DNA of 64,000 bases from Macrostomum lignano (taxonomy: Eukaryota), in contig NIVC01000525.1 in the NCBI GenBank assembly GCA_002269645.1, positions 124,001 to 188,000 of the forward strand. The letters run 5' to 3'. Both the position numbers and the translations under genes were made by a program. Shown here piece by piece: positions 2,776 to 48,359 of this stretch. The notes below the pieces were generated by a model that did no database searches, had not been told where the DNA came from, and saw nothing but the letters and a program-made list of their open reading frames with translations. Each line of letters starts with the position of its first letter. Position 1 is the first letter of the stretch.

Positions 2776-2887
2776 GGCCGTTTCTATTGGCAACACACGC
2801 ATGTAAGTCGCTATTGGACGGAATAGTAGTCACGTGACTGCTCTCAGCCAATAGCGACTTACATGTGTGTTGCCAATAGAAACGGCC
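2776..2887. promoter_or_regulatory. Palindromic element: four CCAAT boxes around a central GTCACGTGAC E-box, ~425 bp upstream of the SLC35B2 ATG
   Basis: Arms 2776-2817 and 2848-2887 are near-perfect inverted repeats. ATTGG at 2786 and 2813, CCAAT at 2848 and 2873, GTCACGTGAC at 2829-2838. Confidence 0.5.
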
Positions 2888-3019
2888 TAAGGATAGATTT
2901 AAGTATATTTAGTAGTTATATTTAGTAGTAGTGCGCATACATTGAATTTAATCCAAGATAGGTATGTCAATGTAACGGAGCTTTTGTCTATGGTAGCAAG
3001 GCTGGCACAGCGGCATTTA

Positions 3020-4290
3020 ATTCGGTCCAACAAGCATCAATTTGGTCCAACAAGCATCAATTCGGTCCAACAAGCATCAATTCGGTCCAACAAGCATCAA
3101 TTTGGTCCAACAAGCATCAACTTGGTCCAACAAGCATCGATTTGGTCCAACAAGCATCAATTCGGTCCAACAAGCATCAATTTGGTCCAACAAGCATCAA
3201 TTTGGTCCAACAAGCATTAATTTGGTCCAACAAGCATCAATTTGGTCCAACAAGCATCAATTCGGTCCAACAAGCATCAATTTGGTCCAACAAGCATCAA
3301 TTTGGTCCAACAAGCATCAATTCGGTCCAACAAGCATCAATTTGGTCCAACAAGCATCAATTTGGTCCAACAAGCATCAATTCGGTCCAACAAGCATCAA
3401 TTTGGTCCAACAAGCATCAATTTGGTCCAACAAGCATCAATTCGGTCCAACAAGCATCAATTTGGTCCAACAAGCATCAACTTGGTCCAACAAGCATCAA
3501 CTTGGTCCAACAAGCATCAATTCGGTCCAACAAGCATCAATTTGGTCCAACAAGCATTAATTTGGTCCAACAAGCATCAATTTGGTCCAACAAGCATCAA
3601 TTTGGTCCAACAAGCATTAATTTGGTCCAACAAGCATCAATTTGGTCCAACAAGCATCAATTTGGTCCAACAAGCATCAACTTGGTCCAACAAGCATCAA
3701 TTCGGTCCAACAAGCATCAATTTGGTCCAACAAGCATCAATTTGGTCCAACAAGCATCAATTTGGTCCAACAAGCATCAATTTGGTCCAACAAGCATCAA
3801 TTTGGTCCAACAAGCATCAATTTGGTCCAACAAGCATCAACTTGGTCCAACAAGCATCAATTTGGTCCAACAAGCATCAATTTGGTCCAACAAGCATCAA
3901 CTTGGTCCAACAAGCATCAATTCGGTCCAACAAGCATCAATTTGGTCCAACAAGCATCAATTCGGTCCAACAAGCATCAATTTGGTCCAACAAGCATCAA
4001 TTTGGTCCAACAAGCAACAATTTGGTCCAACAAGCATCAATTCGGTCTAACAAGCATCAATTTGGTCCAACAAGCATCAATTTGGTCCAACAAGCATCAA
4101 TTCGGTCCAACAAGCATCAATTTGGTCCAACAAGCATCAACTTGGTCCAACAAGCATCAATTCGGTCCAACAAGCATCAATTTGGTCCAACAAGCATCAA
4201 TTTGGTCCAACAAGCATCAATTTGGTCCAACAAGCATCAATTTGGTCCAACAAGCAACAACTTGGTCCAACAAGCATCAACTTGGTCCAA
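3020..4290. repeat. 20-bp tandem repeat (TTTGGTCCAACAAGCATCAA)n, ~63 copies
   Basis: Direct periodicity; explains the NKHQFGPTSINLVQQ ORFs. Confidence 0.97.
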
Positions 4291-4720
4291 ACGCTCGTGA
4301 GCCATTGGAGATACTCCTGCCCCCTTGCAACCGTCGGCGGGTTGTTGCGTACCGCTGGGATGTCAGCATCTCTCTACCAACAATTATCAGTCGCTTTTCC
4401 AGAGCTCTGCTGATGGTCGAAATCTGATAACCAACCGGAACTGTTCCTTCAACTTCTGCTGCATTTCTGCACTGTCAACAAAGGGTTTCTCAACTGCATT
4501 GAGTAGCAGTTGGACCTGAGGCTCTCGCAACTTGCCTTGGCAATTGCCACTCTTTTGCAGGCAACCTCTGCCGGCAGAGTTTCAACGCGCTGATGGTTGC
4601 TGTAAACCATCTTTTCTTTTACATTCAGCAACCTTGCAATGTCTTTTGGGTGTTCACCTCTGTCGAGTGCTTCGATCACAAGCCAATGGCATTCGTTGGC
4701 ACAGCACATGGTCCACAATT
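4290..4720 (-). pseudogene. Tc1/IS630-like transposase fragment (HTH domains only, frameshifted, no DDE domain)
   Basis: Helix-turn-helix-like segments across at least three frames; sequence runs into the 20-bp array where the DDE domain would begin. Confidence 0.6.
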
Positions 4721-10429: not shown

Positions 10430-12305
10430 TGAATGTTTGACATGGTGGCTCTTTTATGTTTGACATGGTGGCTCTTTATTGTTCGACATGGTGGCTTTTT
10501 TATGTTTGACATGGTGGCTCTTGTATGTTCGACATGGTGGCTCTTTTAATGGTCGACATGGTGGCTCTTTAATGTTCTTCATGTTGGCTCTTTTATGTTT
10601 GACATGCTGGCTTTTTTATGTTTGACATGGTGGCTCTTTTATGTTCGACATGGTGGCTCTTTTATGTTCTACATGGCTGCTCTTTTATGTTCGACATGGT
10701 GGCTCTTGTATGTTCGACATGGTCGCTCTTTTGGGTTTGAAATGGTGGCTCTTTAATATTTGACAAGGTGGCCCTTTAATGTTTAACATGGTGGCTCTTT
10801 AAATTTCGAAATGGTGGCTCCTTAATTTTCGAAATGGTGGCTGTTTTATGTTTGACATGGTGGCTCTTTAATGTTCGACATGGTGGCTCTTTAATGTTCT
10901 TAATGGTGTCTGTTTTATGTTTGACATGGTGGCTCTTTATTGTTCGACATGGTGGCTCTTTAATTTTCGAAATGGTGGCTGTTTTATGTTTGACATGGTG
11001 GCTCTTTAATATTTGACAAGGTGGCCCTTTAATGTTTAACATGGTGGCTCTTTAATTTTCGAAATGGTGGCTCCTTAATTTTCGAAATGGTGGCTCTTTT
11101 ATGTTTGACATGGTGGCTCTTTAATGTTCGACATGGTGGCTCTTTAATGTTCGACATGGTGGCTCTTTAATGTTCTTAATGGTGTCTGTTTTATGTTCGA
11201 CATGGTGGCTCTTTTATGTTCGACATGGTGGCTCTTTAATGTTCGACATGGTAACTCTTTTATGTTTGATATGGTGGCTCTTTTATGTTCGACATGGTGG
11301 CTCTTTAATGTTCGACATGGTGGCTCCTTTAGGTTTGAAATGGTGGCTCTTTAATGTTTGACATTGTGGCTCTTTTATGTTCGACATGGTGGCTCTTTTA
11401 GGTTTGACATGGTGACTCTTAAATGTTTGACATGGTGGCTCTTTAATGTTTCACATGGTGGCTCTTTAATATTTGACATAAAGTCACATATATGTTTGAC
11501 ATGGTGGCTCCTAAATGTTTGACATGGTGGCTCTTTAATGTTCGACATGGTGGCTCCTTAATTTTCGAAATGGTGGCTCCTTAATTTTCGAAATGGTGGC
11601 TGCTTTATGTTTGACATGGTGGCTCTTTAATGTTTGACATGGTAACTCTTTTATGTTTGATATGGCTGCTCTTTTATGTTCGACATGGTGGCTCTTTAAT
11701 GTTCGACATAGTGGCTCCTTTAGGTTTTAAATGGTGGCTCTTTAATGTTTGACATTGTGGCTCTTTTATGTTCGACATGGTGGCTCTTTTAGGTTTGACA
11801 TGGTGACTCTTAAATGTTTGACATGGTGGCTCTTTAATGTTTCACATGGTGGCTCTTTAATATTTGACATAAAGTCACATATATGTTTGACATGGTGGCT
11901 CCTAAATGTTTGACATGGTGGCTCTTTATGTTTGACATGGTGGCTCTTTTATGTTCGACATGGTGGATCTTTTTTGTTCTACATGGTAACTCTTTTATGT
12001 TTGATACGGTGGCTTTTGAATGTCTGACATGTTGGCTCTTTTATGTTTGACATGGTGGCTCTTAATTGTTTGACATAGTGGCTCTTTAATGTTCAAAATG
12101 GTGGCTCTTTAATGTTCGAAATGGTGGCTCTTTAATGTTCGAAATGGTGGCTGTTTTATGTTTGACATGGTGGCTCTTTTATGTTCGACATGGTGGCTCT
12201 TTAATGTTCGACATGGTAGCTCTTTAATGTTCGACATGGTAGCTCTTTTATGTTTGACATGGTAACTCTTTTATGTTCGATATGTTGGCTCTTCTATGTT
12301 TGACA
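10430..12305. repeat. ~23-bp minisatellite (TTTGACATGGTGGCTCTTTAATG)n
   Basis: Direct periodicity, diverged copies. Confidence 0.93.
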
Positions 12306-12359
12306 TTGCGCTTCTTTGATGTTTAGCAGTTTTGTTGTGTTTTTAAGGTGTTTTAATAA

Positions 12360-12922
12360 AAAAATCTTTTTGCACTACTATGATTCGAACCCAGGTCGCT
12401 ACATTAGCATTCCAGTCTGTTCGCATCAGGGCTATCTCTTTTCAATTGGAGAACATGAATTGTGGCCCTTATAATTCAATTCTTACAGCAAGTCAATTGG
12501 AGTAAAAAGTTATGACATAATCAATTTCTCAGTCAGCCAGTATCAGTCTCAATTTAAGTTAGCAATATGGTTACGCAATTTAAATCAAGTCGTGTGTGCA
12601 TTTCTTCGGTACTGTTTTCAACTTGTTGTGATGCAATCTTTATCACAATCGGAATTCAGTCAGTCAGTTTTTTCTCTAGCATTCTTACAATGCATTTCAG
12701 GTCGAAAGAGCTGCTTGACCTTTGCAAAAAAGCATGTTTTTCGAATATTTAATCCCTTTAAAATTGAGCAATTTCTTAGCCAAGATGCATGTACCGTCCC
12801 AGGAAAATTTCTGATCGAATGGTGCAAGTTTGAAGAAAATCGGTTGAGCCATTTTTTCTGAAATCTATCGCATACCTACCTACCTACCTACCCACAGACA
12901 ACTCATTTTTAGTATATAGGAT
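12360..12922 (+). mobile_element. Non-autonomous Helitron/DINE-like 3' end with (ACCT)n microsatellite and a tRNA B-box-like segment
   Basis: AAGTTTGAAGAAAATCGGTTGAGCCATTTTTT..(ACCT)n..CAGACAACTCATTTTTAGTATATAGGAT resembles Lep1/DINE-type termini; GATTCGAACC at 12382-12391. Confidence 0.4.
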
Positions 12923-18394: not shown

Positions 18395-18744
18395 TCTTCC
18401 CCTCTACTTTAAACATCTCGCATTCCTTTCGGTTTACAATCACCTATTTTTTGCCACTTTTGGTTTAACGACCACCTTAAAATATTATGCTCAAATGCTC
18501 AAATCAAAAAAAGTAAATAAAAAAACAAAAAATATGCAAAGTTGAAAGTGCGGTTTGTTAGATGATGCTTATATATCAGCTTAGGTAAATGATAATTTAA
18601 AAGTGTAACGCAAATAGAAATTATTGTAAACCAAAGCTGGGTTAAAATTAATAATGTACATAATGCACATGCACTTAGGGTAAAGGTAATTTGCCAGCTT
18701 CGGTTTGCAATCATTTCAGTAGAGTTCATGTATGGAAGTGATCG

Positions 18745-19446
18745 TGTTGTGCCCGGGTGCATCACTTGCACCGATGAGCAATCTCTGGCTTTCGGTCAAG
18801 TGTGCCCGGCACTGCACACTCCCACCCCTCCCGGCCGCGTGCCTGCGTCAACCCCCCCTCTTTCTGACTGCGCCAAACTCCCCCCCCCAGTTGTGGCTGG
18901 CCTGGCCCCTCTGCCCCCCCCCCTTTTTGAGCACTTGTCAATTCCCCTCTTTTTTTGCTATATGCGCTACCCCTCCCTCAAAGGTGATTGGCCAACAAGT
19001 TGGTATTGCTCTGGGTTGTTGATAATGCTGTCTGGCGTGAAACCCTAGGGCTTACGCCAGGCAGCCTAAATAAATAGAGAACTGCTGGTGGCGGGGGGGG
19101 GGGCAAGGTGAGCGGTTGCTGTTGACGTCTGCCACTACAGAATCAATAAACTTCAACTGTGTGATGTCGAAATCTCAATACTACTATACAACCGAATTCG
19201 CCGCCTTGCCCACCGCCGTGCTGATTGGAAGTCATAAGTAAGACTCGCATCTGTATTTATTAATCATTTGGGACTCGTGTAAAGTGGGTACCGTACGCTC
19301 TAGGGACGGACTAATTGCCTTACCTCGACGCGATCCCACGCTCAGTAGCGGAGTCAGTCCGGTCAGTGGGCTGGCGCCAACTCCCAGGCTCGTTCGCTGC
19401 AGAATATTCTTAGGAAGCTGGTACGATCACGTGCAGTGACACAACA
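18745..19446 (+). repeat. 5' LTR (702 bp)
   Basis: Direct repeat of 25805-26554; TAAATAAATA near 19068, AATAAA at 19145. Confidence 0.93.
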
Positions 19447-19447
19447 T

Positions 19448-19465
19448 TGGTGCCGTGACCAGGAT
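19448..19465 (+). promoter_or_regulatory. Primer-binding site, tRNA-His type
   Basis: TGGTGCCGTGACCAGGAT, one base after the LTR; 16/18 match to the complement of the eukaryotic tRNA-His 3' end (TGGTGCCGTGACTCGGAT). Confidence 0.85.
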
Positions 19466-19612
19466 AGTTTAAGGGTTAGTTTACTAGTAGAGAACCTGGG
19501 TTGTACTTTTATGATCTAGCAGTTTCGAGTGCACTTGATCTTTAGTCTGATTTTCTGCCTAGACTGCTTGTAGTTGAATCTTTTCGTCTTGCTTCTCTTC
19601 GTCGCCGCCATA

Positions 19613-20525
19613 ATGGCCAACATCGATGCCCTAATTGACGCACTGGGCGCCAGAGTGCAGAACCAAATGAATATCGGACAGAGAGTCCCCAGACCGTCAA
19701 AGTTTGCCCTTGGACAGGACTTCCAAATTTGGTTCCAACAGTTTACAGCGTACTGTGAGGCTGCAGAAATCCCCGAGGAAGATAGGAAACAACACCTACC
19801 TAGTATGATGGACTTCAACTCAGCTTACCGAGCCATTGCCAACCTTGAGTTGCCAGACAATCTAGAGTTTGACGATTTTGTTGAGCGCCTTTCACAGCGA
19901 TTTAACCAGAATCACACTCCACAAGACAGTAAGATCGAACTGAGGGTCGGGACCACAAGAAGGTTGAATCTGTGGAAGACTATGCCGACGCCCTTCGAGA
20001 AATTGTCCGCCGGGCCTATCCGAACCTGCCGGTGGAACAGAGAGATGATTTTGCAAGAGACCGGTTCCTGCTAGGTGCCAGAATCGCTGATAGAATCCGT
20101 GAACACTTGCTACTGGTAGAATCCGGGTACCCTCGACGCAGCTTGTAGGCGTGTAAAGGCAGAGTATACATCCCTCCGCACAGCTCAATCGAGCACTGAG
20201 AAACCTTGGCCCTCAGCGAACGTATCCGCAAGTAACACGCAAGATGAGGCAGTCAGACTCCGCGAAGAGCTGAAAGAACTGAGAGCGGAGCTGCAAGTCC
20301 TGAAGGCTGGATCGGGAACTGGAGTCCGCTATCATAAGCACCCTAATCCCCAACCTTCCCAGGCTGCAGCACCAGCTCAGAGAACTTTCCAGTGTGGTCG
20401 TTGCCTTGAGACCACCCACGCGACTCAGCAATGCAGAAATCCTATAGTTTGCAATTACTGCAACCGGTCCGGTCACAAACGGGCCAGGTGTTTTAAACTG
20501 CAGAGAGACCAGCAGCAGACGGGAC
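19613..20525 (+). pseudogene. gag: gag, frameshifted, with two Zn knuckles
   Basis: MANIDALIDALG...FQIWFQQFTAYCEA...ESVEDYADALREIVRRAYP...CGRCLETH...CNYCNRSGHKRARC across at least three frameshifts. Confidence 0.85.
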
Positions 20526-23500
20526 AGGTCAGTTGTCGTGCCCTCTGCTGACGGTACCGTCCCTGTCAAGATTACGAATGTGTCGGGAGAACCTGTAGTA
20601 CTGACAAAAGGAAAGGAGATTGGCTGGTTCTCTCCCGTCCATGGCAGCCAACCAAATCATGATGAAGCACCCAAGGCACAAGTTAAACAGGTCTCTCTCG
20701 ACAAAGACTGGGATCCTGTAGAGCATCTGGGCAGCTGGGACTCGCCGGACTTGTCTGAAGACCAGCAGATGTCGATCATAAAGTTGATCCGTCAGAACAG
20801 AGATGTCTTCGCCAAGGACGATAGCGAGCTGGGTTCAACTGACCAGGCAATGCATACCATAGACACCGGGGACGCCAGGCCAACTAGAGAACCACCACGC
20901 CGCATCCCGCCGCACATAAGGCCAGAAATCGATAAAGAAATCGACAGGCTAATAGACTGCGGTAGGATCTGCGAGTGTCAATCCCCGTGGGTTAGCCCGG
21001 TCGTACCTGTACGGAAGAAGGACGGATCCATCAGGCTGTGCCTGGATTATCGCCGGCTAAACGAAGTAACCAATCCTGACCCATTTCCGCCGCCGTGAAT
21101 GGATGAAACTTTAGAGGCACTTGCAGGAAATGCTATTTTTTCAACTCTAGACTTGGCTTCAGGCTATCACCAGTGCTCGCTAGATCCTAAAGACCAACTT
21201 AAAACGGCATTTGTAGTTCCAAATAGAGGTCAGTTCGCCTGGCGATATGTGAGTTTTGGGCTAAGAAATGCCCCGGCGACTTTCGTCAAGCTGATGAACC
21301 TTGTCGTCATGGCTGGTCTGACATGGAGAGAGTGTCTTGTATATTTCGACGATATAATAGTTTTTTCAAAGTCTTACGAAGAGCATTTCGAGCGGCTGCA
21401 GCATGTTTTCGATCGCTTACGAACTGCTGGGATCCGCTTGAAAGCCAAGAAATGCCATTTCTTGTCCAAGAAAGCCAAGTTCTTAGGGCATGTCGTATCG
21501 TCTGAAGGTATTGCGACAGATCCTGCGAAGACAAAAGAAATTCGAAACTGGCCCACACCCAAGAATATAAAAGAACTGCAGTCATTTTTGGGGCTCTGCT
21601 CCTACTACAGAAATTTCGTGAATGACTTCTCAGTAAAGGCAGCCGCGTTGTTCAAGCTCATGCGCAAGGACTCACAGTTTATTTGGGGCCCAGAACAACA
21701 GCAGGCGTTTTCCGAACTCAAGCAATCGCTAACATCAGCGGAGATCATGGCCTATCCAGACTTTTCCGAGGGAGCTGGACCGTTTGTGCTGGACACCGAC
21801 GCCAGCTCAAAGATTGGGATCGGTGCAGTCTTGTCACAATGCCAACCCGATGGGTCAGAGCGCGTCATTGCCTATGGATCCAGGTCGCTGGCAGATTGTG
21901 AAAGAAACTACTGTACTACCAGACTAGAACTCCTAGCGATAGTTCACTTCGTAAAGCTGTACAAGTACTATTTGCTGGGAAGGAAATTTAAGATACGAAC
22001 AAACCATAGCGCTCTCTCGTGGTTGACAAATCTTAAGGACGTCGAGGGGCAATGTGCTAGATGGCTTGAGACGCTGCAGCGTTACGACTTTGAAAAATCG
22101 CACAGGAAGGGAATTTTCCATCAGAATGCGGATAGCCTTTCGCGGAAAGTTAGACAGCATTGGGCTCAAGACTCGTGCCCAACATGCAGCAGTCCACCCC
22201 TAGTTAAAGAACAGGTAAACGTAATGCTGGCTTGGCTGCTAAACAAAGATCATGTCAAGGAGGTTTAAAGTCAAGATCCAGCCCTGGTACGAATAAGGCA
22301 GTTTTTAGATGGCAAGGACACGCAGATAGACCCAATCATCAGTCCAACCATGAGAGAAATCTGGGCCCACCGAAATAGATAGAAGTGGACGATGAACTCT
22401 TCCTAATTCGAGTTCCAGGCACCTCGCGAAAAAAAATAGTCTTGCCTGACTGTCTCTTCGAGGAAGTCGCCAAAATCTTACACGATGGTGCAAGCGGCTG
22501 TCACCCAGGAATTAAAAAACCCAAGCGAAATTCAAACAGCGATTTTGGTGGCCGGGACTGTTCCGCAAGGTTGAAGAGTCCTGCCGGACATGCCTCGTGT
22601 GCTCAAAGTGCAAGCCAGGGCAAAGAAACAAAGCACCTCTCCAACCGATCCCAAGCTCCGCGCCGTGTCAGAGAATTATGTGCGACATAGTCGGACCGCT
22701 ACCTAAGTCAAAGAAGGGGTCAAGATTTGTGTTAACTATTCAAGATTCGTTCAGCAAGTGGCCCTGCGCTATCCCGTTGGTCAACCAGAGGGCAAAGACG
22801 GTGGCCCGTGCGATCTTCACGCACTGGATTTCATCGTTCGGCTGCCCTCGGGAGATCGTCACGGACCAGGGATCAAACTTTGAATCGGCCCTGATGAAGA
22901 GTCTATGCACGCTGTTAGACATCCGCAAATGCCGAACAACACCGTATCATCCGATGGCCGACGGCCAGGCAGAGAGTTTCAATCGCACGCTGAAGCACAT
23001 GCTGATGTGCCAGTTAGAGCAAGAGAATAAGGACTGGGAAGACTGCATCGCCCCAAGCCTGCTAGCATACCGCTCAAGCGTGCACAGAGGCACTGGATAC
23101 ACGCCGCATTACACCATGTTTGCCCGAGAGATGCAGCTCCCTGTTGATATAGATTTCTTAAGTGAGCGGATACCTGAGAGTTACCCAGAGTTCACCCATC
23201 GCTTAGCTGACAATCTTCAGCGGGCGCATGAGGCAGTGAAGGAGAACCTCAGAACCTACCAGCGGAAACAGAAGGAGTTCTACATGTACGACGGTCGGGC
23301 TCGCGGCGTTGAAATTTGAGAGGGAGACCTGGTTTTAGAGTATGATCCGGTGATAAAACCAAACGAAATACCGAAGTTCCACCGTTACTGGAAAGGTCCA
23401 GCGCGAGTCTTAGAGAAAGTTTCCGATGTAAATTTCTAAATAATGCACGAAGGGGCTCGTAGGCCGAGAGTCGTGCATTCCAATAACTTAAGGAAAGTCG

Positions 23501-23781
23501 ACGCAAACTCCAGGCAATGGCGTCCGCCGGCTCGGGAAAAACGTCGTGCAGAGGGTAGGGTCAAGGACCCTGAGCGACACTCCCGCCGGGCACCACCCGA
23601 CCCCCCGTTGCCGACCGAGCAGACCGCTGCGTATGACGATGACGAACCGGATGCCATTTGGGCTCGAAGAGTGACCCACCCGAAAGGTCAGACGGAACCT
23701 CCTCCGGTACACCAAGCCCAGCTCGTGCTAATAGGGGCGTCCCGCCTCGACGGTTCGGTAGCCCAATATTGTACTGACTGA
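20526..23781 (+). pseudogene. pol: pol (RT, RNase H, integrase with GPY/F), disrupted; protease missing
   Basis: RT: SPWVSPVVPVRKKDG, YFDD. RNase H: VLDTDAS, LELLAI. INT: HHCC, CDIVGP / TDQGSNF / QAESFNRT, WKGP. In-frame stops at 21096, 22266, 23317 and 23437; frameshift near 22520. Confidence 0.92.
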
Positions 23782-23975
23782 GCTGGGCACCTGAGCAGCC
23801 CAGTCAGGGCGTTGAGTCAAATAAAAACAATAAAAATTAATAAAAATCGTCAGAAATATGTGCTACGTGAGAGTTCTCAAGTGCGCTCGGAACTGCTGTG
23901 TACCGTATGGGTAAATAATACAAATAGCTGGTTACTGTACGCGTGGGTTAGTGGCAGAGTTACTCTGGAGACCCT

Positions 23976-24377
23976 GTGCCGAATCGGCCTGCCATTGCAG
24001 TGTCAGATCTTTACGACCTGCTGGGTGTGGAACGGTCAGCGTCCCAGAGGCAAATAAAGTCGGCGTTCCGGCAGCGCTCCTTGGCGATGCACCCCGACGA
24101 AGTCGGAATCGGAGGTACAAAGGCGTTTCAGAGAATAGTTTTCGCGCACTCTGTCCTGAGTGACCTATTTTACAGGGCTCTGTATGATAAGTTCGGAGAA
24201 GCAGCAATGTCAAACACCCTGGCTTACGCGCAGCTTTTCAGCCCCCCGCAAGGGGTCAGTTTCCCGAGTGAAGTGAAGGAAGGGTTGGAGCGAATGGGGT
24301 TCGTTGTGATCAGTGATGACGAAGGCGAGTCTGACTCACTGCCAACCGAAGTCGCGAACCGGGAGGCTGGGTCATGA
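23976..24377 (+). CDS. Retrotransposon-encoded J-domain (DnaJ/Hsp40-type) protein with acidic SIM-like tail
   Basis: DLYDLLGVERSASQRQIKSAFRQRSLAMHPDE...TKAFQRIVFAHSVLSDLFYRALYDKFGE matches the J-domain pattern; HPD at 24090-98. Frame open from 23952, GTG start. Confidence 0.85.
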   Translation: MPNRPAIAVSDLYDLLGVERSASQRQIKSAFRQRSLAMHPDEVGIGGTKAFQRIVFAHSVLSDLFYRALYDKFGEAAMSNTLAYAQLFSPPQGVSFPSEVKEGLERMGFVVISDDEGESDSLPTEVANREAGS

Positions 24378-25693
24378 CTGTCAAGCGCACTGGCCCGCAG
24401 CGAGTCCCGGAGGTAATCGAAGCCTCGTATCGCAAGCTGAGGAACCAGCTGGCTCAACATTTGCGAGTTGGTCGACTTGCTCAGGCGCAGGAGTGTCTAG
24501 AAGGACTAGAGAAGCTGTTCTTGGCTGAAGACCTAGAACCCCGCAGGTGGTTGTCCGATGCGATAGGAGTTGCGCTTAGTTTCATCGCGTCAGACGTGTC
24601 GCCGCGGAAGCATCGCCAGGGGTCGACCAGAAGGGGCCGTCGAGTTTTGTCAAACGAAGCGCTGACCGCATCGATCGGCTTCGTGTTGTCCTGTATTAAG
24701 AGGCGGGACCTCTTGGACGGTGGGGTGTTGCTAATGAAGCTGCGCGAGCTAACAGTGTTTGTAGCCCCGGACCAGGGGTGTGAAGATCGGGCGGAGAAGA
24801 GCGTCGATGAGGTCAACGCCGCGGACGTCCTCGACCTGGACTGCCCGCAAGAGGATCTGGGCGGTGATGCTGCAGATGACCTACTGGGAAGTGCGACCTC
24901 GTCGGAAGAAGCTCGGACGGACGAACTGATAGATGCGCACGCCTTCTTGTTGCGTCTGAACGCATGGGCCGGTGGTCTGTTTCTAGACGGCATGAAAGTC
25001 TGTGTCACGGTGGTAAATTCGCCATTCTATCTTCGACCTTCGAATGCCGCAACCGCTCGACTAATCGAAGACACTCGAGTCCACTTCGCGCTTGGCCTGA
25101 GGGCCGCTGCAGCGCCGCTTGCACCTGTATTAGAAGCAAATCTGCGGCGTTTCGTTGCGGGCTAGTGGCCGAGGGTAGTAGCCATCGGAGAAGCGGAGCT
25201 GGACAGGCGAACGGGCACGATTGAGTGGGATCAGCAGGAGGCCGCATTGCGGCTACAGGTGCAGCTTGCAAAGGGGCGGGATCTACCCCTGCTGGTCCAG
25301 CTGCGCGAGAAACGGAGCGGCCGTATCGAGTCAGATGGGACGGCCTGGCATCAATTCTTACGGCTTTTGGTCGAGTGCGGCTTTGAGAACGGACGCATCT
25401 TGGTGACCGAGTCGTCAGATTGGCCGGGTGATCGTCTTGAGCTCTACCTGGCGTCGTTACCGGGACTCAAGTTTGAGTTCACTGCTCGGGTCACGCACAG
25501 TCGCTGGCATGCCAAGCGAGTCGACAGGATACTGCTGGAACGCCTGCTCGTCGCGTTGTCTGCGCCGTTCTCGGGGAATCCGGGGAAGCCGACTGATGTC
25601 CGGGCAGCGGCGGCCTGGTTAGCGGAAGTGCGTCGTGACTTTTCCCTGTTGGCTCAGCTAGTTGCAAATGCGCGTGAATTTTATAAACTTTGA
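24374..25693 (+). CDS. Accessory ORF of unknown function (~439 codons, one in-frame TAG at 25163-65)
   Basis: ORF-track ORFs 24374-25165 and 25247-25693 are in the same frame, with no stop between 25166 and 25246; ATG overlaps the J-ORF stop (ATGA). Confidence 0.6.
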
Positions 25694-25804
25694 AGGGGTG
25701 ATTTGGGTGCAGCTAATTCTAATTCGGTTTTGTCAGTTCTTGTAATCCTGTTCAAATAATTTTCAGTCTATGGTATGAACCCACTTTTTGTGGTGGGGTT
25801 GTGG

Positions 25805-26554
25805 TGTTGTGCCCAACTGCACTTGCACCGATGAGCAATCTCTGGCTCTCGGTCAAGTGTGCCCGGCACTGCACTCCCACCCCTCCCGGCCGCGTGCCTG
25901 CGTCAACCCACCCCCCCTTTCTGACTGCGCCAACCCCCCCCCCCCCAGTTGTGTGTCAGCCCCTTATTATCTGCTCCCTTTTTCTTATTATGCCTTCCCA
26001 GCCGGATTGGCTGGCCTTGCCCCTCTGCCCCCCCCTTTTTGAGCACTTGTCAATTCCCCCCTTTTTTTGCTATATGCGCTACCCCTCCCTCAAAGGTGAT
26101 TGGCCAACAAGTTGGTATTGCTCTGGGTTGTTGATAATGCTGTCTGGCGTGAAACCCTAGGGCTTACGCCAGGCAGCCTAAATAAATAGAGAACTGCTGG
26201 TGGCGGGGGGGGGGCAAGGTGAGCGGTTGCTGTTGACGTCTGCCACTACAGAATCAATAAACTTCAACTGTGATATCGAAATCTCAATACTACTATACAA
26301 CCGAATTCGCCGCCTTGCCCACCGCCGTGCTGATTGGAAGTCATAAGTAAGACTCGCGTCTGTATTTATTAATCATTTGGGACTCGTGTAAAGTGGGTAC
26401 CGTACGCTCTAGGGACGGACTGATTGCCTTACCTCACGCGATCCCACGCTCAGTAGCGGAGTCAGTCCGGTCAGCGGGCTGACGCCAACTCTCAGGCTCG
26501 TTCGCTGTAGAATATTCTTAGGAAGCTGGTACGATCACGTGCAGTGGCACAACA
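25805..26554 (+). repeat. 3' LTR (750 bp)
   Basis: Direct repeat of the 5' LTR plus a ~56-bp extra segment (25952-26007). Confidence 0.93.
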
Positions 26555-28423
26555 ATCGTAAACAAAAGATGAGGGGGGATTTTGATGCCCTCGATTTGGA
26601 ATGAGCAGCATGGTTTTCTGCATGTCACTATTTGTTGCATTTGACATGCTTTCCTACAGCCAGCTTTTGGTTCACAATCATTTCAATTCAATGAGCAACA
26701 CATGTAGGTGATCGTAAACCGAAGACCTGGAATATAAGCTACGACAGTCTTACCATCTTTTAAAATAAACAAAGTCAGTTCGCCAACTTTTGATTTCTTT
26801 TCATTGGAAACCACCGTCAGGTTTTATGTCTCACAACTGTTTTTAGTGGTGATCGTCACTGTTTGAGGTGATTGTTAACCAAAGGAATGCCAAAAATCTT
26901 AGATCTATCATTGTGCTATAATGGCAAATGTTCTTAATCTTATAGGGCCTACTAGGCCTAATTGAGTAACTAATAAGCAATAAATTGCTTGTCTCAGACT
27001 TAGTCTTATAATAATAGATTAATCTATCCAATATAGGCCTATTAGGCCGGTTCCTAGTCATTTCGTCATCATCTCGGGTGTCTGGGGTGCTCACCTCGAC
27101 TAGGGTCAGTTCGTCATCTTAATTAGCATGCACTACCTGAAGAGAGTCATTTCGTCATCCACCAATCATATTAGTTCTAGGGGCCTAACTTCCAAGTGAA
27201 TTAATGTGGCAACTAAACATATTTATTTGGAATCCTAATTATCCCAGTCATTTTGTCATCTCGATTGATAAAACCTGTCGATCGATCGGTTCTGCTTGCT
27301 GCACCTTATAGTTAAAAAAAAGCAAAAAATAGTTTTACACTAACTCGAATCTTACACGATTAATTGGTTGATGACGAAGTATCCAGCATCTGCATAACTA
27401 AATATTTGGTCACTTCGTCATATTATTTTTCAAAGCTACTTTGCTTCTGGTAACTTCCTCATCTGATATGACGAAATGGAATATGACGATCTGACCAGTG
27501 ACCATTAGGCCTAATATAAGAACTCCAATGAGATTTAAAAATTCGGCCTTATTTTTTAATATTTTTATTTAATTTGATAAATCTAATTTGTATAAATACA
27601 AAGAAAAATTGGTCAAGTCATCAAAAGCTTACAAAATTTATATTAAAAAATTGTTTTTTTATTGTGTATTTTCCATTACTAGGCATTGTCATTTGCTCTT
27701 TAAATCATTTTTGCTTAAAAACTTCTTTTTGCTATTTTTGTTTAAATTTGTTTAACTAGGCCTAACTTCTATGCCTAGCCTAGTTTGTCATCTTTTTGCT
27801 TTTTATCATTTATTTATTCATGAACATTAGGCCTAGGCTTAATATAGCCAAAATAGTCAAAACTTTTGCAACAAAGCCTAAATTGCTAAAATTAAAAAGG
27901 TCAGTCTTAAACCTAAAATTAAAAAACCCAATGCCAAAATGAATACTAAGATGCAAAGTGGCATTAATAAAAAGTTTAAAAATTAAGAATATTCCTATAT
28001 CTTTAATTTGCTCCTAATATTGCTCTGACTTTGAGCTTCTAACCTAAGTCCTAAATTCCCAATGTACTGCATTGCTAGTCTATTCAATTCTATCTCATTT
28101 TAGATCAACCATGGACAATTTAATTCTTTTTTAAGTTTGGTAAATTTGGTATTAATCTAAAAAACAGGGTGTCAATTTGGTATTAAAGGTCCAAATCTAA
28201 GATGTCAAAAAATCAGGATGCCATGGCACTCATGCCAAAAAACCAGATAGATGCCAAGCAAACATTCTAAAATATGAGGCAATATATTGTGCCATAGGCC
28301 TAGCTAAAATCTTATGCATCTTGGCTAATTGGCAAATTTGAATTTTCAATGTGATTTAATAATATAACATATTTTCTGAGATGATGCTTACTGTATTATA
28401 TTTGCTAGATATATATATGACAC

Positions 28424-29215
28424 TTGTCATATAGCAATTAGTATAGCTACAACATGGCCCTTAGCATATGGTAGGCTACTTTAGCATTCATTTAACAAGG
28501 CTTGTGATATAGCAATTAGTATAGCTACAACATGGCCCTTAGCATATAGTAGGCTACTTTAGCACCATTTAACAAGGCTTGTCATATAGCAATTAGTATA
28601 GCTACAACATGGCCCTTAGCATATGGTAGGCTACTTTAGCACCATTTAACAAGGCTTGTCATATAGCAATTAGTATAGCTACAACATGGCCCTTAGCATA
28701 TGGTAGGCTACTTTAGCACCATTTAACAAGGCTTGTCATATAGCAATTAGTATAGGCCTAGCTACAACATGGCCCTTAGCATATGGTAGGCTACTTTAGC
28801 ACCATTTAACAAGGCTTGTCATATAGCAATTAGTATAGCTACAACATGGCCCTTAGCATATGGTAGGCTACTTTAGCACCATTTAACAAGGCTTGTCATA
28901 TAGCAATTAGTATAGCTACAACATGGCCCTTAGCATATGGTAGGCTACTTTAGCACCATTTAACAAGGCTTGTCATATAGCAATTAGTATAGGCCTAGCT
29001 ACAACATGGCCCTTAGCATATGGTAGGCTACTTTAGCACCATTTAAAAAGGCTTGTCATATAGCAATTAGTATAGCTACAACATGGCCCTTAGCAAATGG
29101 TAGGCTACTTTAGCACCATTTAACAAGGCTTGTCATATAGCAATTAGTATAGCTACAACATGGCCCTTAGCATATGGTAGGCTACTTTAGCACCATTTAA
29201 CAAGGCTTGCTACAA
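28424..29215. repeat. 77-bp tandem repeat (~10 copies, some with a 7-bp insertion)
   Basis: CTTGTCATATAGCAATTAGTATAGCTACAACATGG...CATTTAACAAGG, period 77. Confidence 0.92.
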
Positions 29216-29745
29216 CAAGATTTTTTGAGAAAAACTTCAAAAAAGCTTCAAAGCTTTCAAAAAGAGCTTTTTAGACTTCAGAAAGAGGAAGTAAAAAAAT
29301 TATATATAAGACTTTCCTCTCTCTTTCTCTACTTGGTCAATCTAAGACCCTTTGATATAATCTTCATACATCAGCTTTGGAAATGACACCTTGGCAAATT
29401 TCTGCTAGAATTATTATTCAAATAGAGACAATGATATAGGCTTATAATATAAGCATGGGTCTTATTTGATATAAAACCCATGAATCTTTGTCAAAATCGT
29501 CAATAAATTTTTAGTATATGGAGTTGCATAGACATGTTGATTAAAAAAATTTAATTTTCGCAATTAAATAAATGATGGAATTTCCTAGGACTATATGCCT
29601 ACACTAAGGGTTATTTCCCCAAAACAGTATTTGGTCTGTAAAAATTTAGCCATGCAATTCCTTATATTGAAAATATTTGCATTATTTCATGGCTGACAAA
29701 CAGCAGCTACATGTGTTGGGTGTGCATTAGATAGAGCTTCACTGG

Positions 29746-38032: not shown

Positions 38033-48359
<10,327 letters not shown>

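Follow-up and report, generated by a model that had tools for sequence, protein, structure and literature searches.

A conserved SUMO-interacting-motif-like sequence next to the J-domain of a third ORF in Macrostomum lignano Ty3/gypsy retrotransposons

The third ORF of a Ty3/gypsy element

The window, a 64,000-nt stretch of a Macrostomum lignano contig (NIVC01000525.1, positions 124,001 to 188,000), contains a Ty3/gypsy LTR retrotransposon at 18745-26554, with LTRs, primer-binding site, target-site duplication, gag, reverse transcriptase (RT), RNase H and integrase all present. The features of the element located below lie on the plus strand. The 5' LTR (18745-19446, TG...CA) differs by 17 substitutions over ~690 aligned bases from the 3' LTR (25805-26554), which follows a G-rich tract at 25791-25804, and the element is flanked by a 4-bp target-site duplication, ATCG, at 18741-18744 and 26555-26558. 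Its primer-binding site (19448-19465), which we take to resemble tRNA-His, is followed by a frameshift-broken gag with a zinc knuckle (19613-20551) and by pol (20448-23480), which survives in pieces (RT, RNase H, integrase) with stops, frameshifts and a stretch missing near 20525. A 5.8-kb relative of the element (run X5, contig 26) keeps gag-pol and carries 638 bases absent from the window at 20525; it skips 23514-25544, so that nearly all of ORF3 is absent. Long minisatellite arrays also occur in the window at 2879-4400, 10430-12400, 28423-29309 and 42978-45000, with units of 20, 23, 77-83 and 35 bases.

Between integrase and the 3' LTR lies a third ORF, which opens with a J-domain (24006-24188; Pfam PF00226 DnaJ, E 8e-15; AlphaFold2 pLDDT mostly ~90) carrying an HPD at 24090-24098; by its modelled J fold and HPD, the product is a J-domain protein. 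The domain continues into a folded, family-specific helical extension (24189-24296) in the AlphaFold2 model. An earlier sequence-only reading of this DNA had noted a SUMO-interacting-motif (SIM)-like stretch following the J-domain, and we confirmed this: bases 24300-24335 encode FVVISDDEGESD (F-V-V-I-S-D-D-E-G-E-S-D) in the J-domain frame, with the core at 24300-24311 and a serine in CK2-type context at 24312-24314. In the AlphaFold2 model of the window J-ORF, residues 1-98 are folded, while the motif is low-confidence coil (block pLDDT 58).

Further downstream is a five-helix domain common to the J-ORF families (24410-24760), which has a basic Arg/Lys loop from 24599 and is out of frame with the J-domain in the window. 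Foldseek returned no match for its fold at E<=0.001, and the best Atlas score was 0.75. The best VIA match, to cobalamin-cap helical bundles, had a Z of 7.9, which is inside the chance range, and no fold was assigned. The weaker acidic DVLDLDCPQED that had been ascribed to 'ORF2' was located at 24824-24856, in the next frame and also between integrase and the 3' LTR, with similar stretches at the equivalent place in families B and D. This second motif is found again behind the helical domain of families A, B and D. It does not satisfy the acidic-run pattern, and it has changed in 4 of 6 family B copies; it is a possible weak second site. A TatD-like domain (24926-25693; Pfam PF01026, E 1e-6) follows, with a stop at 25163-25165 in the window copy. 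It starts LIDAHAF, without the second His of the usual HxH, and codon changes between families A and B comprise 98 synonymous and 75 nonsynonymous ones.

The motif had also been described as a C-terminal tail, which did not hold up: in families B and A3 it runs in one frame into what the window presents as 'ORF2', so it is an internal linker motif, and in the window insertion the reading frame is interrupted within the linker, somewhere from about 24330 to 24375. Neither the motif nor the frame break is likely to be an assembly error, because a 483-nt contig of run X1, which may be related to the assembly's source, spans 24211-24693 with zero differences. We examined whether an ATGA overlap at 24374-24377 is a stop-restart signal and rejected the idea, since its ATG corresponds to a Met inside the family B protein and the sole two copies represent one insertion. 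The second of these, L068, is the only close copy of the window element, and the upstream flank common to both identifies them as the same insertion. The two differ in the J-ORF by 5 amino-acid changes versus 2 synonymous changes, and in the remainder by 10 versus 6. Because these differences are mostly amino-acid changes, the window copy is not under selection now; it is decayed, and its motif is probably just a remnant from its ancestor.

A donor-like site, GTAAGA, in the LTR (19238-19243) would, together with an acceptor at 23999-24000, supply the J-ORF start codon, and a similar donor/acceptor pair is found in the family B copy L070. In several families the acceptor directly precedes the start codon; in A and B, LTR donor and acceptor would jointly supply it. 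Judging by these sites, ORF3 is probably made from spliced RNA. No LTR-to-ORF3 joint was found in the contigs of four runs each for the window element and a family E element, a result that has no bearing on expression. The window LTR contains no canonical heat-shock element, and we therefore abandoned the idea of a connection with the heat-induced families of PMC12801592.

J-ORF families and conservation of the motif

We searched the M. lignano genome with the window J-ORF and scored 150 of 214 candidates. Among 40 stretches fetched around varied hits, RT or integrase lay upstream of the J-domain in 21, and most of the remainder were host J genes. An RT tree gave good support to lineages A/B, C, D, E, F, G and H with the branching order among them not settled; a quick integrase tree places H with A/B. 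Common to all families are the J-domain with its folded extension, an acidic linker and the five-helix domain with its basic loop. In sister families a single protein runs from J-domain through motif to helical domain, sometimes with a TatD-like domain, which is additional in lineages A, B and H. Lineage G has a chromodomain inside the linker, in the motif's place, as does an outside protein, P0093. In lineage H, both the HPD and the motif are missing.

Several members have features of their own. Family H (L035, L038, L044, L092) has a 571-residue ORF with a J-like domain lacking the HPD and no acidic linker, keeps the TatD-like domain and is present in many near-identical copies. The chromodomains of L039 (G000:C245, minus strand) and P0093 retain two of three aromatic cage positions (Y and W) of a cage as in HP1. 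The third cage position is V or L, and because one of the three aromatics is thus replaced, H3K9me binding is not assured. In family D, L034 has a tandem duplication of pol and J-ORF, and in L045 a deletion fuses RNase H in frame to the J-ORF, corresponding to the public gene model P0087. The family C copies L067 and L083 have the primer-binding site TGGCGCCCGAAC, which we take to resemble tRNA-Lys and which is unlike that of A, D and H despite the common ORF3. A longer-protein search with the window J-ORF returned just 3 ordinary DnaJ proteins, a search with alignment A5 gave 3 proteins, none new and useful, and a metagenome contig scan with A5 confirmed 0 of 16 candidates.

To score the motif, we used the strict patterns SIM-a/b/r as given in the available text of PMC3631770 and a relaxed pattern, [PILVMFYWC][ILVM]x[ILVM][DSE]3, which allows F, Y, W or C at position 1 and was set after the data from the genome families had been seen. 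Linkers were cut from 12 families, including A3 and F2, which are decayed copies without RT beside them; G2, in which the frame stops short of the helical domain, and L031, L081, L084, L088 and L089, which are near-duplicates or truncated, were left out. Conservation among family copies had been named as the check on the original claim, and it did not refute that claim: the relaxed pattern occurred in 9 of 12 family linkers versus 0.44 expected from shuffles, and in 4 of 7 deep lineages versus 0.26 expected. Composition shuffles of the window's own 36-residue linker yield it 2.6% of the time. The strict patterns, which the window copy fails, occurred in 3 of 12 families (0.64 expected), 1 of 7 lineages (0.39 expected) and 1 of 5 outside proteins (0.63 expected).

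Because the relaxed pattern was set post hoc and the families share ancestry, P values for it within the families overstate the case, and we therefore turned to sequences that had played no part in setting it. A profile built from just the helical domain, leaving the linker unused, retrieved 9 proteins from among 1.84 billion. Two were named gene models of the same species, one was a weak repeat hit and one lacked most of the linker; with P0088 replaced by its full-length cluster member P0095, five outside relatives were kept (P0089, P0090, P0092, P0093 and P0095). The pre-fixed relaxed pattern was present in 3 of the 5, versus 0.40 expected (P 0.004). P0095 carries a tandem of VIEISDEE, a strict match, FVEVDED and VIIVDTD. 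Family D (QVEISSES) and P0092 (TVSVSDED) keep the HPD with only weak versions of the motif.

The pattern is concentrated in the linkers, where 10 hits fell in 1,001 residues, compared with 3 in the long frames lying upstream in the same elements (14,145 residues) and 0 in 11 J frames of the host (2,708 residues). Of 30 own-genome loci, 19 of which are near-identical family C copies, 28 have an intact motif and the other 2, both decayed copies, an altered one. Across five sister pairs, 26 of 35 motif residues were identical, compared to 162 of 388 linker residues outside the motif. Between families A and B, its 9 codons differ by 4 synonymous changes and 1 conservative change. The serine is encoded by TCN in E and E2 and by AGY in A, B, F and F2, and its retention across these two codon sets points to selection on the residue itself. 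The motif is retained between lineages whose J regions are just 27-39% identical and whose linkers are 36-132 residues long; it is separated from the J extension by 3 to 81 residues, and it is in tandem in C2 and P0095.

These data bear directly on whether the motif arose by chance in an acidic linker and is shared by descent alone. SIM patterns are loose, the linkers are very acidic, the families are related and the relaxation was post hoc, all of which would favor chance. The composition shuffles, the out-of-sample test, the higher conservation of motif over linker, the synonymous excess and the serine codon-set switch largely refute it, and we consider chance very improbable. On the sequence evidence, the motif is very likely a selected, conserved short linear motif.

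The kind of motif

A SIM core is defined as four residues, mainly V, I or L, in the available text of PMC12751080, and F-V-V-I has at least three hydrophobic residues of four, mainly of these types. The sequence-only reading had likened the motif to canonical SIMs, which holds for the hydrophobic core followed by serine and acids but not for core position 1, where F fails the strict SIM-a pattern passed by B (IVVISDD), A3, C and P0095. Across 14 instances, the cores are V- and I-rich, acids lie on the C-terminal side in all 14 (S-D-D-E-G-E-S-D in the window), a serine directly follows the core in 9 and a CK2-type site is present in 8, as scored with the generally known CK2 consensus. Position 1 is F or Y in 8 of the 14, unlike the SIM preference for V, L or I. 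The motif is better conserved than its flanks and is predicted by AlphaFold2 to lie exposed in a disordered linker. PML and Daxx are examples of parallel phospho-SIMs. The class is described as loose motifs with downstream serine or acids in the portion of PMC12751080 available, and the sequence features listed above fit that description. The flatworm motif likewise resembles the SIM-a phospho-SIMs, as presented in the accessible part of PMC3631770, in its four-residue hydrophobic core, the serine and acids that follow and the predicted disorder, and differs from them in having F, Y or C at position 1 in most flatworm families, outside the strict pattern.

The unusual first position raises other assignments. 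A docking strand for a non-SUMO partner, or an autoinhibitory fold-back on the J-domain or helical domain, would be in keeping with the frequent F or Y at position 1, the W at position 3 in E2 and F2, the upstream residues common to E and F that hint at a more specific pocket, and the failure of most instances under strict SIM patterns. We nonetheless think this unlikely: the floating position of the motif and its tandem occurrence argue against it, AlphaFold2 leaves the motif unpacked against the J-domain, and the beta-branched core with downstream serine and acids fits SIMs.

An Atg8/LC3-interacting motif (LIR/AIM), which would link Hsp70 clients to autophagy, was also weighed. The LIR core pattern is [WFY]xx[ILV], which F-V-V-I, Y-I-L-I and Y-I-W-I fit, and the pocket of Atg8 overlaps with that of SUMO. 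There is, however, no enrichment of the LIR core, which occurs in 8 of 12 linkers versus 5.7 expected and in 4 of 5 outside proteins versus 3.2; the motifs of B, A3 and C and the best motif of P0095 have no aromatic residue; and the acids here follow the core, whereas LIRs usually have acids before it. We regard this assignment as improbable. Taken as a SIM, a rather likely assignment on these features, the motif is predicted to bind SUMO.

The host encodes possible partners for such an interaction. It has SUMO genes, with strand 2 groove residues conserved over 44 aligned sequences, and 24 zf-MIZ (SP-RING) matches. These PIAS/ZMIZ-type matches fall in several groups and suggest a SUMO ligase family expanded beyond assembly redundancy. 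Seven identical intronless SUMO genes (L071-L077) were also observed, six of which form inverted pairs on three contigs. The SUMO encoded by this genome has exactly the sequence of a protein labelled Macrostomum lignano at NCBI.

A proposed role and its relation to known systems

Our main reading, to which we give a probability of roughly 0.45, is that the motif is a SIM that would tether the J-domain, and with it Hsp70, to SUMO-modified nuclear proteins, most plausibly loosening SUMO-dependent silencing complexes on the element. The core would add a beta-strand to the SUMO groove in parallel orientation, and the acidic run and CK2-phosphorylated serine would contact the SUMO basic patch. Binding of SUMO on a modified protein would be the adaptor step, after which the HPD loop would recruit and stimulate Hsp70 on the tagged protein, while the helical domain with its basic loop may give nuclear import or a second contact.

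A chromodomain replacing the motif in G and P0093 fits a targeting slot in the linker, as does the lack of both HPD and motif in H, each of these being one evolutionary event; D and P0092 retain the HPD beside weak motifs. piRNA silencing in flies depends on recruitment of SetDB1/Wde through contacts between SUMO and SIMs, as reported in the available part of 10.1101/533091. Repressors would be a natural client because this silencing relies on such contacts, the data being from flies and the host here a flatworm. An anti-silencing purpose for the motif/J-domain pair is a reasoned guess that we hold only tentatively. We are similarly hesitant about the wider proposal, in which ORF3 would be a SUMO-targeted Hsp70 co-chaperone whose exchangeable reader, mostly a SIM and once a chromodomain, aims it at silenced chromatin to pull SUMO-dependent repressors apart.

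The same conservation of the motif could reflect a SIM that serves the element's own proteins, by bringing ORF3 to SUMO-rich nuclear bodies, by promoting its own SUMOylation, or by directing Hsp70 to SUMOylated forms of Gag, integrase or integration-site factors; even a dampening effect on the element is conceivable. Placed in this slot, a chromodomain could steer integration, as in chromoviruses, as well as act against silencing. Viral SIMs, moreover, often act on a protein's own SUMOylation or localisation (NS5, LANA and BGLF4 in the available text of PMC12751080). The joint absence of motif and HPD in H, a single event, suggests instead a pair acting on one client, and we judge service to the element's own proteins unlikely.

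For the main reading, tethering to SUMO-modified proteins, a parallel in manner of working is polyomavirus large T antigen, which combines a J-domain with LxCxE. Both systems place the J-domain of a mobile element, with its HPD, in cis with a host-binding motif that has an acidic, CK2-type flank. They differ in that the flatworm ORF3 is carried by an LTR retrotransposon, its motif is SIM-like and its target putative, and it has no LxCxE, helicase or origin-binding domain: LxCxE is absent from the window J-ORF, and Pfam gives just DnaJ, TatD or Chromo in these ORFs. Like T antigen, ORF3 pairs the J-domain of a parasite with a targeting motif, which in ORF3 is probably aimed at SUMO.

Other systems share parts of this arrangement. 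HSV-1 ICP0, KSHV K-bZIP and LANA, and EBV BGLF4 (PMC12751080, available text) are likewise parasite proteins in which a phospho-enhanced SIM-type motif is joined to an effector; theirs is a RING ligase, SUMO ligase or kinase, whereas that of ORF3 is an Hsp70 co-chaperone domain, with SUMO binding predicted. Bdelloid LTR retrotransposons with non-env ORF3 cargo (GDSL, DEDDy) also carry a captured ORF between integrase and 3' LTR, probably on a spliced message, and the main text of that paper (PMC5408684) does not mention DnaJ, TatD or SUMO. In plants, SILENZIO with MBD5/6, as far as the accessible account goes, resembles the flatworm protein in that a reader module brings a J-domain to chromatin, and differs in being host-encoded, recruited in trans and a J-protein serving silencing. 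DNAJ1/2 with SUVH1/3 are further plant chromatin J-proteins. Since plant J-proteins can work on either side of silencing, they give no guide to the direction of an ORF3 effect.

In the literature searched, at listing or abstract level and with few subscription journals, we found no retrotransposon-encoded J-domain or J-plus-SIM protein. The main text of a 2025 study of LTR elements of M. lignano (PMC12801592) does not mention DnaJ, J-domain, TatD, chromodomain or SUMO, and among the matches listed for its five supplements there were only host genes or tree labels. According to the part of that study available, M. lignano has transgenic tools.

Silencing suppressors encoded by transposons are familiar from plants but scarce in animals, and how Hsp70 reaches SUMO-modified chromatin is an open question. 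The SUMO link of Hsp70 direction to chromatin is circumstantial in the available text of PMC9305344. If the wider proposal is true, ORF3 would serve an animal retrotransposon as its own counter-defence to SUMO/piRNA silencing. The combination of a J-domain with a conserved SIM-like motif points to a likely class of clients for ORF3, and if the motif binds another partner, it is even so the best-conserved contact site in a retroelement protein not described before.
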